NCBI GenBank assembly: GCA_963664705.1
Contig: OY761556.1
Coordinates: forward strand, 1,728,001 to 1,792,000
DNA: 64,000 bases
DNA from: Acidobacteriota bacterium
Lineage (GTDB): Bacteria > Acidobacteriota > UBA6911
Direction of reading: 5' to 3'
In this document: in pieces, positions 1 to 7,020 of the stretch
Layout: every line of letters begins with the position of its first letter
How positions within the stretch are numbered: position 1 is the stretch's first letter
Translations under genes and position numbers: made by a program
The notes under the pieces: model-generated
Seen by the model: the letters and a program-made list of their open reading frames with translations, nothing else
Told to the model about the DNA's origin: nothing
Database searches by the model: none

Positions 1-490
1 TTACAAAACCTGGATTCGCCAGTAACACGACCGGCGTGCCAAAGCCCTCGATAGCTATTCCGTTATAGACGAGGAACTTTGTGCAGGACCCTCAATCTCC
101 GACCAGCAAAATGACCGCATCGACTCCCTTGGCCCAGGCAATGAATTGGTCGCGGTTTTTGGTTTCGGTTTCCACGACATTCCATTCCGTGGAATTGAAA
201 GTTCGAATGTCGGAGTCCGGATACATGGACTTCAATCTTCTTTCGAGTGCCAATCCAATGGGGCGCGCCGCGCGCTTGTAATTGACAAACAATCCTATCT
301 TCTTCCCGGCGAGGCCGTCTATGCGCGGCGAAATACCCTTGAGCGGAATAGGATCCACTTCCGCCCACGGACTCAGAACTTCATACCGAATCGGCGGCGA
401 TGCTTGAGCAAATAGCATGTGCGAAGGCACCTGTGCCGCTGCCAGGGCAACGAGCAATCCCAGGGCCCAACGAATACCAAATCTGGGCAT
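1..490 (-). CDS. UGSC-family selenoprotein with N-terminal signal peptide; in-frame TGA (92-94) read as Sec; 3' end runs off the window
   Basis: The track ORF ends ...VILLVGD*, but the frame continues TGA GGG TCC TGC ACA = U-G-S-C-T and stays open to base 2 (KFLVYNGIAIEGFGTPVVLLANPGFV). The upstream part (PRIDGLAGKKIGL..N.K) is typical of the family. GGAGG precedes ATG at 490. Confidence 0.85.
41..80 (-). promoter_or_regulatory. Candidate bacterial SECIS hairpin downstream of the Sec codon
   Basis: On the minus strand AAAGTTCCTCG pairs with CGAGGGCTTT, with an inner CTAT/ATAG stem and an AACGGA loop. The stem starts 11 nt after the UGA. Folded by eye. Confidence 0.55.
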
Positions 491-592
491 AATGCTGACC
501 TCCATGCAATTGTTTATAAAGAGAAGGGGGCGATTATATCGCGATTTCGCGGAGTAAACAGAATTAACTCAGGATGAAAAAGGGTGGGAATT

Positions 593-638: not shown

Positions 639-3600
639 TCAGTTCAGCTTCCAGTTGCTGCCGAAAGCCTGGCGTCGGGCAGCGGATAATGCCTCTCGTA
701 ATTCGCTTTTTCGATAGGGCTTGCTAAGGAATACCTGAGGCAATTCTGCGCGGCCTTCTTTCCCAATCTGTGCCATGGCATATCCACTTGCAAGCACCAC
801 CGGAATTTCCGGACGGATTTTCCTAATGGCGGACAGAACTTCCCAGCCATCCATTCGAGGCATGGAAAGGTCCAGCAGTACGCAAGTGATCGTATCCTTG
901 TGCTCGCGAAACAGATTTACCGCTTCGACTCCATCGATGGCGGATAAGACTTTGTAGCCCAAACGCTCAACGATGCTGCAGGTCAGATTGCGGACCGACT
1001 CTTCATCTTCAGCAACCAGGACAATCCCCTCAAGAGGTCCTGCCGCAACCAGAGGACTCGGCGAGTCTTCGATGGGAGGTGCCTCCAGTCCGGAAACTGG
1101 CAGGAAGATCCGGAATGTTGTGCCAAATCCCAATTTTGAATCAATCGAGATGCCTCCCCTGTATCTGCGGACAACGCCCAGGACAAGGGATAATCCGAGG
1201 CCGCGACCAACGAACTTGGTTGAAAAGAAGGGATCAAAAACGCTTCCGACTATGGCGGGATCCAGACCGCAGCCGGTATCCTCAACGGCAAGGCTGATAT
1301 ATCGTTCTTCGCTTGGTTTCCAATCGGCGGGGAAAAGGCGCGCCCCCTGGAGCTTTTCAGCTTGAATGGTGCGAAGGGAGATGCGGATGGCGCCATCCTG
1401 ATCGCCAATGGCTTCTCCCGCATTCATGACGAGATTCGTAATGATCTGGCGGATATGTCCAGGATCCGCCACAATGGTCGGCCCGGGGAAGGGAATTTCC
1501 GTTGTGATCCGAACCTTTTTGGAGATTGCTTCGCTGGGCAGGACCAGTGCATCGCGGATAATGGCAGCAAGGTCGATGGGATCGACTTCACCGCTGGCCT
1601 GCCCAAGATAGACAAGCATCGATCTGCTTACATCCGCTGCGCGGTGCGATGCCTTCATCGCTTCTTTCAGGTGATCCTTCAGTCCGGGAAGATTGGGAAC
1701 ATCCTCCAGCGCCAGTTCGAGGTTTCCGAGAACCACGGACAGCATATTGTTAAAGTGATGTGCGATGGCGGCGGCCATGCGGCCCAGGCTTTCGGATTTT
1801 TGAACCTGGAAGAGTTTTCGCTCCAGGTCCAACCGATCGTTTTCCCCTTTGAGGCGTTCAGAAATATCGCGCGATATGCCGAGAATTGCCGGTTGGCCGC
1901 TCCATTGGGCGCGGACGATCCTGGTTTCCACGGGGATCGAATTTCCGGATTTTGTATGGAGGGGGATGGGGCAGAATTCCCGCGTTCCGGCCAGCATGTC
2001 GGAAATAATCTGCTCAGCCTCTTCTCGCCGATTCGGCGGATGAATCTGATGAACGGATTGCCCGATAAGCTCTCCTGCGGCATATTCGAGGCGATGCTCG
2101 GCAACCGGATTGGTGAAGATGATTTTACCCTGCTCATCGATGACGAAGACGAAATCCTGAAGCGAACTGAAAAGAGTTTCGAGGTTCTGTCGGAATTCCC
2201 GAAGCCGCTCTCCCGTTTTTATGCGCGCAATTGCCCCGCCAAGCTGAGCCGCAATCATTTCCAGCGCATTTCGGAATGGAATCGGAATTTCGTCATGCGA
2301 GTGGGATGCAACGTTAAGAACGGCGATGACGCGACTGTTATGCAATACCGGAATTACGGCAATCGCACGCAGTTCTTCACCCGTGGTTGCGGATTTGGCC
2401 TCCGGAAAGAGTTCCTGGTAAATCCGATATACAGGTTTTCCTGAAAGAGCAAGGCTAACCTGCGGGCTATCAGATCCAAGGCGCTGAGCGTTTTCCACAA
2501 ATTCGCTGGAGAGACCGCGGTGAACAATCAAATTGAGTCCTCCGTCACCATCGTCTCTAAGGTATACACCGCCGCAATCGGCTATTCCGAGATTGCAGAT
2601 CGTCTCAATGACGCGGTTGAGGGCGTCCAGGAGGTCTGTTGACGAACTCAGCGCGATGGCAAGATCTCGCTGAGCATTGGAAAGATCCATCAGTTGGTGC
2701 GCTTCCGAATTGTCCAGGTTGGTTCCCATCATTCTTAGCGGATGGTTGTTGCTATCTCGCTGGACAACCTTGCCTTTGGAGAGAATCCACTTCCATTCAT
2801 TCTTTCCCGTGAGCAGCCTGTGTTCAACTTCAAAGAATGGCGACTTCCCATCCAGATGCGGCTGCAGAGCTTCTTTTATCAGCGGCAGATCATCCGGATG
2901 AACCATTCCGCTCAGATCGTTGCTGGTAAGTGAGAGGCCGGGATCTCGATCCAGCATTCGAAACCACTGTTTGTTGAAGGCGAAGGTGCCAGTCGAGATG
3001 TCCCAATCCCACATTCCCATCCGACCACTATCCAGGGCCAGTTCAAGCCGTTGTCCCTGCATTGCTAACTGGTCTTGAGCCCTTTTGGCATCTGAGAAAT
3101 CGGAAATGACCTTAATGGCTCCGATCAATTCTCCTTTAGCGTCATAATATGGGAAGGCGCGTGAGAAAAACCAATTCCCGTATCCGGATGAATCCGGCAT
3201 ATGAGAGATGTCCTGGTGCGATAGCTGATCTTTGAATACTTCCACCGCTGAACAGGAATCACAAACTTGTTCTCGACCCCGTAAGACCTTATAGCAGGGC
3301 TGATGGAGTATTTCGGATGACATTCCGAATAGGGCCTCCGCCGTGCGATTGGCATATTGAAGCTTCATGTCGCGGGAGATGATGAACAAGCCGTCCTGAA
3401 CATTGGAGAGGATTTGTGCCTGGGTCCGGATCAGTTGTTCTCCCTGGCGTTGTTCCGTAATATCATCTGCCACGCATACAACATAAGCGATATTGCCCGC
3501 GTCATCCATTTTAGGAGTTTTTCTTATCGCCAACAGGCGCCGTTCCCCTTGGCCGTTGGGTACCCATTCTTCGGCATACACAGATTGCCGTGTTCGAAAC

Positions 3601-5102
3601 AACTCCATGTTGCTTTCGCGGCACACTTGCGCGACATCGGGAGGCAGGAATTCATCCAGTTTTTTGCCTGCTGCCCGGGAAACTGAAATGCCGAGAAAGT
3701 CCGCATGAGCCTTGTTCAGGTTGGCATAGGTGTTGATATCGGTTAAGTACCAGATCTGAGTTTCGATGTTGTCTAACAACAGCGATTGTTCATCCGTCTT
3801 AGCCCGCAGGGCATCCGTAATTCTCAAGTTTTCAATGAGGAGTCGACTGTTTTCGTCCGCTGTTTTTGCCGGCTGCGATAGTTCATTGCCCAGAGCCAAT
3901 AGCGCAATGACCAGGTTGTTGTGGCGGAGCAGCGCATCATCGGCCAATCCTTGTTCTCCAAAGGAATAGCAGCCAACCAGCGGGGCATTGGGCAGAATGG
4001 CCTGAAGTGCTTCAATCTCTTCCGAGGTGCGACGCCTTAAAATGCGGGGCCGAAGGGCGCAGGAAAATGCCAGAATCAATGAAGGCTGGGCAATATGCGC
4101 TCGCCACAGGGCTTTGCGCGCTGCGGTCGGAGCGGCCTCAATGATTTCGTCGGAATCAGCGGCCATTACAATCAACACGGCTCCCTGGACAACCGGTTGA
4201 GTCATTCGGATGCCGCCTTGAGGCGTGATGAAGCTGGCCACATTGACGCTATATTGGCCAAAAGCATCGGCGGTTCCACACGGTTTTTGTGTTAGGAGCG
4301 TAAGATGCTTCCCCTCCAGTTCGTTGCGCTCCATTTCCACCAGCTCGGCGTAGACATCGGCTGCAGGCCGTCCATCGAGTTCGATAACTTCGTGCCCTTG
4401 GCATCGCGTTACGGTTGCCCGGCGGCTTGTGGGTTTGAATCCGTGAGACATCGCCATTCCGAAGGCGAGGCGAGTGCGGAAAAGGACGAACAAAAGGCTA
4501 TCGGGATGGGCTTCCGTTCCGCAAAGTACGAAGTTGGTATCCATCCGCCAATCATCCGCCGCGCAGCCCCCAATAATGGGGAATCGGTCATTGGATAAGC
4601 CTTTTATCTTCTCAAGAATTTCAAATCCGCAGCAATTGGACTGCTGCGTGTTGCCCGGGGAGAAGAGCATTCCGAATACGTTCTCTCCCTTCCGGGTCAA
4701 TTCGGACCAGGTATCATCCTTTGCTTCGGAAAAGAAATCGCATAGCCCCTCCGCGGAGAGCGCTTCGTCAACTGCCGCAGCCCAGTTTCTCGAGACATTT
4801 CGGCCCAATCCCATTTCGACCTGAAGATAGGGAGATGCCAGTGCCGTGACCACCACGCTTCCCTCATGAACCCCGTTGCAGATTTCGCCTGCGGTGGTGA
4901 TTCCTGCCAGGGGAGCATCTCCCATCACGCTGGCGATGCCGGCAAGAAGACGTTGGAGGTCATAGCGAATGGAGGCGAAAACCAGGACAACAGATATGTC
5001 ATAGTTTTTAATTCCGCTCCGGGCTTGTTTTGCAGCCAAAACGCCGCACTCATAGGAGTCGTCCGCCCTAGATGTACCATAGCCAACTTCAATCAAATTC
5101 AT
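639..5102 (-). CDS. Hybrid sensor histidine kinase: FIST-N/FIST-C, multiple PAS, GAF, HisKA, HATPase, REC
   Basis: FIST motifs (GITTAGEI, GGCAADD, FSCALR, GCYSFGEQG); PAS/PAC repeats; H-box IAHHFNNML; PFFSTKFVGRGLGL; receiver EDEE/LLDLSMP/LSKP. Confidence 0.9.
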   Translation of the reverse strand: MNLIEVGYGTSRADDSYECGVLAAKQARSGIKNYDISVVLVFASIRYDLQRLLAGIASVMGDAPLAGITTAGEICNGVHEGSVVVTALASPYLQVEMGLGRNVSRNWAAAVDEALSAEGLCDFFSEAKDDTWSELTRKGENVFGMLFSPGNTQQSNCCGFEILEKIKGLSNDRFPIIGGCAADDWRMDTNFVLCGTEAHPDSLLFVLFRTRLAFGMAMSHGFKPTSRRATVTRCQGHEVIELDGRPAADVYAELVEMERNELEGKHLTLLTQKPCGTADAFGQYSVNVASFITPQGGIRMTQPVVQGAVLIVMAADSDEIIEAAPTAARKALWRAHIAQPSLILAFSCALRPRILRRRTSEEIEALQAILPNAPLVGCYSFGEQGLADDALLRHNNLVIALLALGNELSQPAKTADENSRLLIENLRITDALRAKTDEQSLLLDNIETQIWYLTDINTYANLNKAHADFLGISVSRAAGKKLDEFLPPDVAQVCRESNMELFRTRQSVYAEEWVPNGQGERRLLAIRKTPKMDDAGNIAYVVCVADDITEQRQGEQLIRTQAQILSNVQDGLFIISRDMKLQYANRTAEALFGMSSEILHQPCYKVLRGREQVCDSCSAVEVFKDQLSHQDISHMPDSSGYGNWFFSRAFPYYDAKGELIGAIKVISDFSDAKRAQDQLAMQGQRLELALDSGRMGMWDWDISTGTFAFNKQWFRMLDRDPGLSLTSNDLSGMVHPDDLPLIKEALQPHLDGKSPFFEVEHRLLTGKNEWKWILSKGKVVQRDSNNHPLRMMGTNLDNSEAHQLMDLSNAQRDLAIALSSSTDLLDALNRVIETICNLGIADCGGVYLRDDGDGGLNLIVHRGLSSEFVENAQRLGSDSPQVSLALSGKPVYRIYQELFPEAKSATTGEELRAIAVIPVLHNSRVIAVLNVASHSHDEIPIPFRNALEMIAAQLGGAIARIKTGERLREFRQNLETLFSSLQDFVFVIDEQGKIIFTNPVAEHRLEYAAGELIGQSVHQIHPPNRREEAEQIISDMLAGTREFCPIPLHTKSGNSIPVETRIVRAQWSGQPAILGISRDISERLKGENDRLDLERKLFQVQKSESLGRMAAAIAHHFNNMLSVVLGNLELALEDVPNLPGLKDHLKEAMKASHRAADVSRSMLVYLGQASGEVDPIDLAAIIRDALVLPSEAISKKVRITTEIPFPGPTIVADPGHIRQIITNLVMNAGEAIGDQDGAIRISLRTIQAEKLQGARLFPADWKPSEERYISLAVEDTGCGLDPAIVGSVFDPFFSTKFVGRGLGLSLVLGVVRRYRGGISIDSKLGFGTTFRIFLPVSGLEAPPIEDSPSPLVAAGPLEGIVLVAEDEESVRNLTCSIVERLGYKVLSAIDGVEAVNLFREHKDTITCVLLDLSMPRMDGWEVLSAIRKIRPEIPVVLASGYAMAQIGKEGRAELPQVFLSKPYRKSELREALSAARRQAFGSNWKLN

Positions 5103-5898: not shown

Positions 5899-7020
5899 AT
5901 GTCCATCTACCGCCCAAGTATTTGGGAACAGGCACAGCAGCAGGGATTGTCTCGCCGCGAATTTCTGAAATTCTGTAGCTGGATCAGCGCCGCACTTGGA
6001 CTTGAGCAAATGGGAGTAGCTCAGGTGGTCAAAGCGCTCGATTCCAAGCCTCGACTTCCCGTTGTCTGGTTTCACTTTCAGGAATGCACCTGTTGCAGTG
6101 AGTCCTTCCTCCGGTCTTCGCATCCTACGGTGGGAAAGCTGCTCCTCGATACGATTTCGCTGGACTACACGGAAACGCTGCAGGCGGCATCCGGTCAGCA
6201 TGCGGAAGAAGCTTTGCACGAGACCATGGCGAAATATCGAGGGGAGTACCTGATGATGGTGGAGGGGTCGGTGCCATCGGCCGACGGAGGAATCTATTGC
6301 TGTATAGGCGGTCGTACCGCGACGGACATTGTTCAGGAAGCCGCAGCGGGTGCGAAAGCGGTCATTGCATGGGGAAGTTGTGCATCCAATGGTTGTATGC
6401 AGGCTGCGCGGCCGAATCCGACCGGAGCACAGCCCATTCGCGAAGTGATTTCGGGCAAGCCGATCGTCAATGTGCCTGGATGTCCGCCGATAGGCGAAGT
6501 TATGGCAGGCGTCATCGTGCATTTACTGGCCTTTGATCGCATCCCGCAGCTGGACGGGGCGGGAAGGCCGAAAGCTTTTTACTCGCGACGGGTTCACGAT
6601 ACCTGTTACCGGAGACCGAATTACGATGCCGGGCTTTTTGTTGAATCCTTTGATGATGAAAATGCCCGAAGAGGTTTCTGTCTGTATCGGATGGGGTGTC
6701 GCGGGCCGGTGACATATAACTCCTGCGGAGTCATGCGCTGGAATGAGGGGGTGAGCTATCCAATACAATCCGGGCATGGATGTATTGGCTGCAGCGAAAG
6801 CAGCTATTGGGATAACGGGCCATTTTATCGCCATTTGGCATCATTCCCCGGTTTTGGAATTGAAAAGACTGCAGATACGATCGGAATGGTTCTTGGTGCG
6901 GGCACGGCGGTCGGCATCGCGGCGCACGCCGTTGTCACGAATGTCCGCAAGCACCAGATCATTGCTGAGGGAGTTGAGGAAAGCAAGCGTCAGGCAGAAC
7001 TCGAGAAAGGAGATGAATAA
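5899..7020 (+). CDS. hyaA: [NiFe]-hydrogenase small subunit, Tat-exported, with C-terminal membrane anchor
   Basis: SRREFLK Tat motif; ECTCCSES, GSCASNGC, PGCPP, HDTCYRR, CLYRMGC, GCIGC; C-terminal hydrophobic helix; AGGAG RBS. Confidence 0.93.
   Translation: MSIYRPSIWEQAQQQGLSRREFLKFCSWISAALGLEQMGVAQVVKALDSKPRLPVVWFHFQECTCCSESFLRSSHPTVGKLLLDTISLDYTETLQAASGQHAEEALHETMAKYRGEYLMMVEGSVPSADGGIYCCIGGRTATDIVQEAAAGAKAVIAWGSCASNGCMQAARPNPTGAQPIREVISGKPIVNVPGCPPIGEVMAGVIVHLLAFDRIPQLDGAGRPKAFYSRRVHDTCYRRPNYDAGLFVESFDDENARRGFCLYRMGCRGPVTYNSCGVMRWNEGVSYPIQSGHGCIGCSESSYWDNGPFYRHLASFPGFGIEKTADTIGMVLGAGTAVGIAAHAVVTNVRKHQIIAEGVEESKRQAELEKGDE

Follow-up and report, generated by a model that had tools for sequence, protein, structure and literature searches.

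The gene at the left edge of the window (the whole stretch of DNA analysed here, 64,000 nucleotides, G000:C1:1728001-1792000 of a genome of one contig and 6.89 Mb, with 98.15% completeness and 6.18% contamination) encodes a protein of the UGSC family, in which an in-frame UGA codon is very likely read as selenocysteine (Sec). The protein is predicted to be exported, the genome holds 31 Sec paralogues of the family, and the region around the Sec resembles the catalytic region of the reductase subunits GrdB and PrdB. The family, its motif and its fusion to a second domain are already known, and as a single gene this is a mis-split member of an orphan family; the unusual part is the expansion of the family across one genus, not export.

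The gene is read from the minus strand. Under translation table 11, an open reading frame starting at 505 or 490 closes at 92, ending in ...VILLVGD followed by a TGA; the codons after the TGA read GSCTKFLVYNG, which gives the motif GD-U-GSC-T. Past the TGA, 435 further codons remain open as far as a TAG at G000:C1:1726784, about 1.2 kb beyond the left edge of the window, and the whole frame from 490 to this TAG contains the single TGA and no other in-frame stop. The first-pass annotation had proposed a selenoprotein missed by the ORF caller, with its apparent stop in GD-TGA-GSCT and a frame open to the window edge, and the sequence agrees with this, beyond the edge too. The extent of the protein was the part that had to be revised: the frame does run on past the TGA, but the full length is 568 amino acids, and about 60% of the protein is a second domain outside the window. 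The ATG at 490 is the likelier start, because GGAGG precedes it by 8 nt (568 aa, Sec133); residue numbers given here are those of P0002, a version of 573 aa counted from 505, in which the residue is Sec138. Contigs of runs X1 and X2, both from a single public sample that may be the source, show no differences across the TGA, and the same TGA is present in all 11 orthologous loci from other genomes, which excludes a lone sequencing error. In the protein collection, this gene is represented solely by a 414-aa product from behind the TGA (P0003), and the 120 best homologues listed, at 384-437 aa, are split in the same way.

Membership of the UGSC family rests on Pfam PF24696, which matches residues 43-216 with 81.7 bits (cut-off 25) and spans the TGA, with the (U/C)GSC motif present inside the domain. 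The short NCBIfam UGSC model, NF041046 (147 positions), scores 69.6 bits (E 2.7e-19), below its curated cut-off of 125, and the gene is therefore filed under the Pfam family and not under that equivalog. Homologues also align downstream of the TGA. The remaining ~350 residues match no Pfam or NCBIfam model; by eye, this C-terminal part contains the block AVNxVMAG..P..MP..NGP, which the supplement of PMC2398784 shows for Unknown_1, and the fusion of UGSC with Unknown_1 has been in print since 2008 (Zhang & Gladyshev, PMC2398784 Fig. S1A). The U-G-S-C motif and the Unknown_1 fusion form are thus common to this protein and to the family as described (PF24696, NF041046; PMC1976440, PMC2398784), whereas the signal-peptide-like N-terminus, the sub-cut-off NF041046 score and the 31 Sec copies per genome set it apart. 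In other genomes, 76 loci were found with the C-terminal domain (C-domain), and in 71 of these, from many phyla, a UGSC domain adjoins it, fused in 35 and separate in 36. The break in the 36 natural split forms falls after the UGSC domain and not at the UGA. In the copy counted for each locus, the residue at the Sec site is U in 61 loci and Cys in none.

The inference that this organism decodes Sec is borne out by its genome. NCBIfam models identify selA (541 bits, cut-off 268), selB (331, cut-off 242) and selD (369, cut-off 125) in one locus together with a tRNA-Sec gene, and a second tRNA-Sec gene is located elsewhere. The family match, the Sec machinery and the homology behind the TGA all hold, so neither a genome lacking the machinery nor a TGA lacking homology beyond it was found. 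The selB-selA and selD-selC cluster occupies L003:597-6306 (G000:C1:3072596-3078309); the SelD encoded there has Cys instead of Sec and is extended by a Cys-rich stretch at the N-terminus and a CMD/AhpD domain at the C-terminus. The second tRNA-Sec (L004:6015-6109) lies far from this cluster, ~0.5 kb from a transposase-like ORF, and the extra selC may have a role in a large Sec demand. Beside selC, an ArsM-like methyltransferase is encoded at L003:6481-7092 (minus strand), for which the best NCBIfam matches, below cut-off, are Sec-containing ArsM fusions; the ORF terminates at DAWST, at the place where such families carry Sec. A UGSC locus is found beside a selB-like gene in two unrelated genomes (L096, L111).

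TGA at Cys-type sites also occurs in five further genes of this genome, which likely encode selenoproteins of well-known families, namely FdhA, two MvhD/FlpD and two rhodanese-domain genes (G000:C1:4400667, 44730, 3819517, 4666776 and 4399521; rhodanese motif YCT-U-PNE), and searches of the genome with PF00578 and PF02754 gave no TGA-bearing match. The selenoproteome amounts to at least 36 proteins, made up of 31 UGSC proteins and at least five from five family searches; a dicodon-score scan returned 2,983 candidates of 52,554, which is too noisy for a total. It is highly improbable that a variant tRNA or a reassigned code causes UGA to be read as Cys or Trp. ARAGORN gives three tRNAs with a TCA anticodon and three tRNA-Cys, but two of the TCA tRNAs are tRNA-Sec (70.6 bits with the Rfam model, cut-off 47) and the third is a degenerate 72-nt gene (L002:3657-3719). 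TGA is moreover an ordinary stop in this genome, so the code is not reassigned: the paralogue at C1:1684303 terminates at a TGA 435 codons past its Sec codon, where the present gene has a TAG at the same length.

A hairpin had been claimed at 41-80, at a SECIS-like distance behind the UGA, and it folds as claimed. Its stability is weak when compared with dinucleotide shuffles (z -1.49; 15 of 200 equally stable); compared with 60 synonymous recodings z is -2.8, another window of the same gene giving -2.2, and five subfamily members in the genome give -2.7 to -4.9 against synonymous recoding. The strongest sign is a constraint on synonymous codons among relatives. Over the 17 codons after the UGA, synonymous identity in 16 subfamily members is 0.80 of pairs, while the background has a mean of 0.465 (sd 0.049, max 0.617; 488 windows away from the site). 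Base pairing is preserved in 98.2% of the cells of the 11-pair stem; covariation amounts to a single compensatory pair, a level that 26 of 500 shuffles also attain and that is not significant by itself. When the 60 nt after the UGA are folded for all 31 Sec paralogues, the effect is modest (mean z -0.76, compared with -0.51 to +0.12 at other offsets); a shorter G+C-rich hairpin lies 10-30 nt behind the UGA in many of the other paralogues. The 41-80 hairpin is likely to be a SECIS. That the TGA is instead a true stop or a nonsense mutation, leaving two genes or a pseudogene, is scarcely credible: gene callers do split the gene here and split forms occur in 36 of the 76 loci, but the Pfam domain runs across the TGA with the motif Cys behind it, the same TGA recurs in other phyla and in 31 paralogues whose median identity is 35%, the synonymous constraint lies directly behind it, and the natural split comes after the UGSC domain.

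Table 1. Features of the UGSC gene, in window positions unless the contig is named.
Feature	Position	Strand	Remarks
Shine-Dalgarno-like GGAGG	499..503	-	8 nt before ATG 490; from sequence
In-window part of the gene, first 163 of 568 codons	1..490	-	Continues to TAG at window -1216
Predicted Sec-pathway signal peptide, ~28 aa, likely cleavage between A and Q of LFAQ	407..490	-	Hydrophobicity heuristic; xA/Q in several orthologues
UGSC domain PF24696, P0002 43-216, on to window -142	1..379	-	Predicted flavodoxin-like alpha/beta fold
In-frame TGA, probable selenocysteine of U-G-S-C	92..94	-	Resolving Cys codon 83-85
SECIS-like hairpin, core stem 41-80	40..81	-	Begins 11-12 nt after UGA
Read-through codons inside the window after the TGA	1..91	-
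C-terminal 'Unknown_1' domain, P0002 ~230-573	G000:C1:1726787-1727818	-	Wholly left of window

Judged by its sequence pattern, the protein is quite probably exported. The signal-peptide-like start noted by the first-pass annotation shows an n/h/c pattern by a hydrophobicity heuristic, in which two Arg precede a hydrophobic core (best Kyte-Doolittle mean over 11 residues 2.55) that is followed by the junction given in table 1. By the same kind of heuristic, a hydrophobic start is present in 27 of the 31 Sec paralogues; one has a Tat-like SRRSFLK and three have none. Among the 35 fused forms from other genomes, 14 have a hydrophobic start (some loci are cut short), which makes export a property of some lineages. 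Export had also been called unusual. The sequence pattern fits export, but there is precedent in bacteria, where the selenoproteins SaoB, SaoX and SaoC have a signal or lipoprotein peptide (10.1101/2022.07.06.499078), and export alone is therefore less unusual than first thought. Those proteins resemble the present one in combining such a peptide with a UGA-coded Sec and a short hairpin behind it, but they are ABC substrate-binding proteins of unrelated families, with CU motifs, encoded in one conserved operon, and no NCBIfam model of the SaoB/SaoX/SaoC type matches this protein.

The genome contains 35 PF24696 genes, all above cut-off, of which 31 have one TGA. In every one of the 31, the TGA occupies the same alignment column and forms part of a UxxC motif (UGSC, USSC, UDGC, USVC and others), and the resolving Cys is kept throughout. 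The other four (G000:C1:445674, 2729858, 2730692 and 5838329) have M, L, N or S at the site, and thus neither Sec nor Cys, with the open frame intact; one of them directly follows genes for an aldehyde:ferredoxin oxidoreductase and a Tat-like ferredoxin. The paralogues are scattered on the chromosome and cluster into 10 groups at 50% identity. Pairwise identity has a median of 35% and is at least 90% in just 4 of 595 pairs, so strain mixing does not explain the copy number. All 18 genomes drawn from the same genus have 9-44 matches to P0002, and four same-genus genomes picked for their high counts have 23-45 PF24696 matches. One sister-genus genome has 2, and in other families of the class 2 of 12 genomes have 2 matches each. 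In a draw of 300 genomes from the phylum, the domain occurs in 28 of the 297 outside the genus, at 1-3 copies and mostly in short stand-alone forms, and the three same-genus genomes have at least 11 copies each. Since kin are not independent, the same-genus counts represent one expansion, in a lineage that, judged by its named homologues, probably belongs to Acidobacteriota.

The scale of this expansion can be set against published counts. A survey of more than 5,200 genomes in 2016 gave 33 UGSC genes in 26 organisms (PMC5029168 Table 3), approximately the number found here in one genome. BSepDB contains 57,630 selenoproteins from 16,621 species, an average of ~3.5 per species compared with 31 from one family here, and its top ten have 46 to 63 and include no Acidobacteriota (PMC13326102 section 11); 'UGSC' is absent from the searched part of the BSepDB supplement. 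Within the openly accessible literature searched, no account of export, expansion or GrdB homology of UGSC proteins was found. Because gene callers split these genes, this share of the periplasmic proteome is unseen in annotations.

The surroundings of the genes are varied. Directly upstream of the present gene, window 639-5102 (minus strand) encodes a hybrid histidine kinase of 1,487 aa that combines PAS domains and a receiver with an N-terminal NosP/FIST-like region (NF041558, below cut-off), and window 5899-7020 (plus strand) encodes a [NiFe]-hydrogenase small subunit (TIGR00391, above cut-off). The two genes flanking the present one, leuB and that for the NosP-domain histidine kinase, recur in none of 19 related loci and offer no functional clue, and a promoter and terminator scan yielded no more than chance. 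Across the 76 loci, the recurrent neighbours are thioredoxin-reductase-like (6), SDR (6), CoA-transferase III (5), TctC (5) and MmgE/PrpD (4) genes. Within this genome, the Pfam scan covered 123 of 126 selected neighbours, all except the three next to this gene, two of which were scanned with NCBIfam instead. TonB-type outer-membrane barrels lie within 5 kb of 11 of the 35 paralogues where 1.9 would be expected, an excess inflated by the use of neighbours as seeds, and the same seed bias applies to aldehyde:ferredoxin oxidoreductases (near 6 of 35 UGSC loci, 1.2 expected) and MFS transporters (5 of 35, 1.1 expected). SDR dehydrogenases are near 3 of 35 paralogues (1.1 expected, p 0.09), which is not a significant enrichment, and that of xanthine-dehydrogenase-type, carboxylesterase, tannase, MCP and FAD-binding neighbours is not significant either.

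BLAST from the neighbour seeds revealed other expanded families: 21 aldehyde:ferredoxin oxidoreductases, 20 xanthine-dehydrogenase-type subunits, 34 TonB-type barrels, 16 carboxylesterases, 13 tannases and 26 exported proteins without a Pfam match. A family of predicted exported (small Ig-like) proteins of ~190 aa is encoded at nine sites in G000:C1, eight of which abut a UGSC gene on the same strand, seven downstream and one upstream (for example L054:8897-9508:+, L037:4675-5238:- and L046:4075-4644:-). Five of these eight copies are in one close subfamily and none is beside the present gene; DUF4352 is above cut-off in one of three scanned copies. The genome also encodes a complete DsbD and a TlpA-like exported protein.

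The structure of the protein was predicted with AlphaFold2 from a 58-sequence alignment (pLDDT 89.5, pTM 0.89). The N-domain matches flavodoxin-like proteins, namely azoreductases and FMN reductases (E 6e-5 to 1e-3), as well as alpha/beta domains of the TIR, receiver and related kinds, where the best match (Z 10.9, rmsd 4.2, 139 aligned) shares its rank with unrelated entries; thioredoxin is not among the structural matches listed for it. The Sec is positioned where a strand ends and a helix starts. A flavodoxin-like prediction differs from the 2008 description of UGSC, in which a Trx-like fold was supposed (PMC2398784).

Kinship of the Sec region was assessed by aligning profiles with hhalign. 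The profile of 35 UGSC N-domains matches the C-terminal regions of 12 members of the GrdB/PrdB family, taken from loci of the phylum that have PF07355 and lengthened past the UGA of each, with a probability of 94.3% and E 1e-7 over 72 columns, placing U on U and C on C and continuing through an E..G.P.V strand to an (H)P.G motif. Controls from the genome gave 0.4% for thioredoxin-type proteins, 1.1% and 2.8% for receiver domains and 0.9% for IlvD. PF07355 itself gives no match to this protein at E<=1; the model ends just before the Sec, so the shared part is invisible to it. Searches of PDB sequences with P0002 and profile A1 returned nothing significant. Common to UGSC, GrdB (glycine/betaine/sarcosine reductase) and PrdB (D-proline reductase) is a strand-UxxC-helix-E..G.P-strand module with Sec on Sec. 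In contrast to GrdB and PrdB, the present protein has an unrelated fused domain in place of the pyruvoyl subunit and is predicted to be exported to the periplasm, whereas Grd and Prd are cytoplasmic or membrane-associated complexes. No GrdB/PrdB turned up in this genome in a search that was positive in 37 of 151 genomes of the phylum.

The C-domain alone is modelled with pLDDT 85.2, and a fold search found no clear match for it (best Z 5.7, rmsd 3.5, 85 aligned; none with Foldseek at E<=0.001), which does not prove a new fold. Two weak matches, one to class I fumarate hydratase (E 9e-3, rmsd 16) and one to F420-glutamyl ligase (Z 5.7), are not taken as relatives; kinship with IlvD/Edd, for which a Foldseek match (6nte, rmsd 18.7) and similar motifs had spoken, was also rejected, hhalign giving 0.9% on just 2 sequences. 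Among 127 sequences, the conserved C-domain residues are D256, P259, P263, T264, N301, M304, S/T335, T336, G347, N369, G373, R374, E408 and W415, with no Cys or His; the near-invariant polar residues are D256, T264, S/T335, T336, N369, R374 and E408.

What these proteins do can be approached through PrdB, whose Sec attacks the alpha-carbon of a substrate bound to PrdA and whose activity was lost when Cys replaced the Sec (PMC11229817). Because their Sec region resembles the GrdB/PrdB catalytic region, the proteins of this genome would likely be bond-cutting reductases. By analogy, the reading that we favour, at a probability slightly short of even, is a PrdB-like periplasmic reductive C-X lyase fused to a substrate-binding partner, that is, a one-chain version of proline/glycine reductase in which UGSC keeps the nucleophile and the resolving Cys. 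The Unknown_1 C-domain would hold a small substrate, and the Sec would attack a substrate carbon and cut a C-N, C-O or C-S bond. Cys141, three residues on, would then release the product by forming an Se-S bond, which a periplasmic chain of the DsbD/TlpA type would re-reduce. Each of the 31 diverged paralogues would probably serve a different periplasmic substrate. That Cys forms are nearly absent agrees with a reaction dependent on Se, and the number of diverged paralogues close to genes for transport and catabolism agrees with a wide range of substrates. The C-domain has no clear structural match, so that its substrate-binding role is putative; the electron route and any substrate class can be suggested only weakly. 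Against the lyase reading, the GrdB match covers just 72 columns of a common alpha/beta fold with small profiles, and a pyruvoyl partner of the PrdA/GrdE type is not among the recurrent neighbour families named by Pfam.

A Sec-dependent periplasmic oxidoreductase in the thioredoxin sense, acting on thiols or disulfides, peroxides or sulfoxides and using its C-domain for protein-substrate recognition or oligomerisation, is a rather doubtful alternative. The UxxC motif, the DsbD in the genome and the thioredoxin-reductase-like gene near 6 of the 76 loci are all consistent with it, and PMC2398784 files UGSC among likely Trx-fold proteins. The predicted fold is at odds with this assignment, since its matches are flavodoxin-like, receiver and TIR domains with thioredoxin nowhere among those listed, and so are the profiles, with 0.4% for thioredoxin-type proteins versus 94% for GrdB/PrdB. 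The divergence of the 31 paralogues also fits substrate diversification better than redox housekeeping.

It is unlikely that the proteins are non-catalytic or slow, binding or sensing a ligand by using Sec and Cys to ligate a metal or metalloid or to capture an electrophile, an arrangement that would include outer-membrane receptors and the small Ig-like partner. The TonB-type barrels near 11 of 35 paralogues (inflated, as stated, by the seeds) and the small exported protein that abuts a paralogue in eight of nine copies would suit such a role, as would the four paralogues of 35 that keep an open frame without Sec or Cys at the site, and Sec as a ligand has been proposed for SaoB and SaoC (PMC13188914). 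Against binding as the function, no periplasmic-binding-protein fold spans the protein, the C-domain lacks conserved Cys or His, all 31 Sec paralogues retain the resolving Cys, and the module to which the protein is homologous is catalytic.

The PrdB-like lyase can be placed in a wider and more tentative scheme, in which UGSC/Unknown_1 proteins would form a third branch of GrdB/PrdB, consisting of pyruvoyl-free reductive C-X lyases whose substrate domain would have a fold not yet described, and that this genus may have exported and multiplied into a periplasmic toolkit for anaerobic breakdown. UGSC is among the most abundant selenoprotein families in environmental data, and the match to GrdB/PrdB makes the function of this orphan family testable, with the C-terminal domain as a good structural target. 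If the scheme is true, tens of selenoenzymes (31 here, and 45 domain matches in a relative) would constitute most of the selenoproteome of these organisms, and the toolkit would degrade imported organic compounds, some of its members with a dedicated small Ig-like partner.
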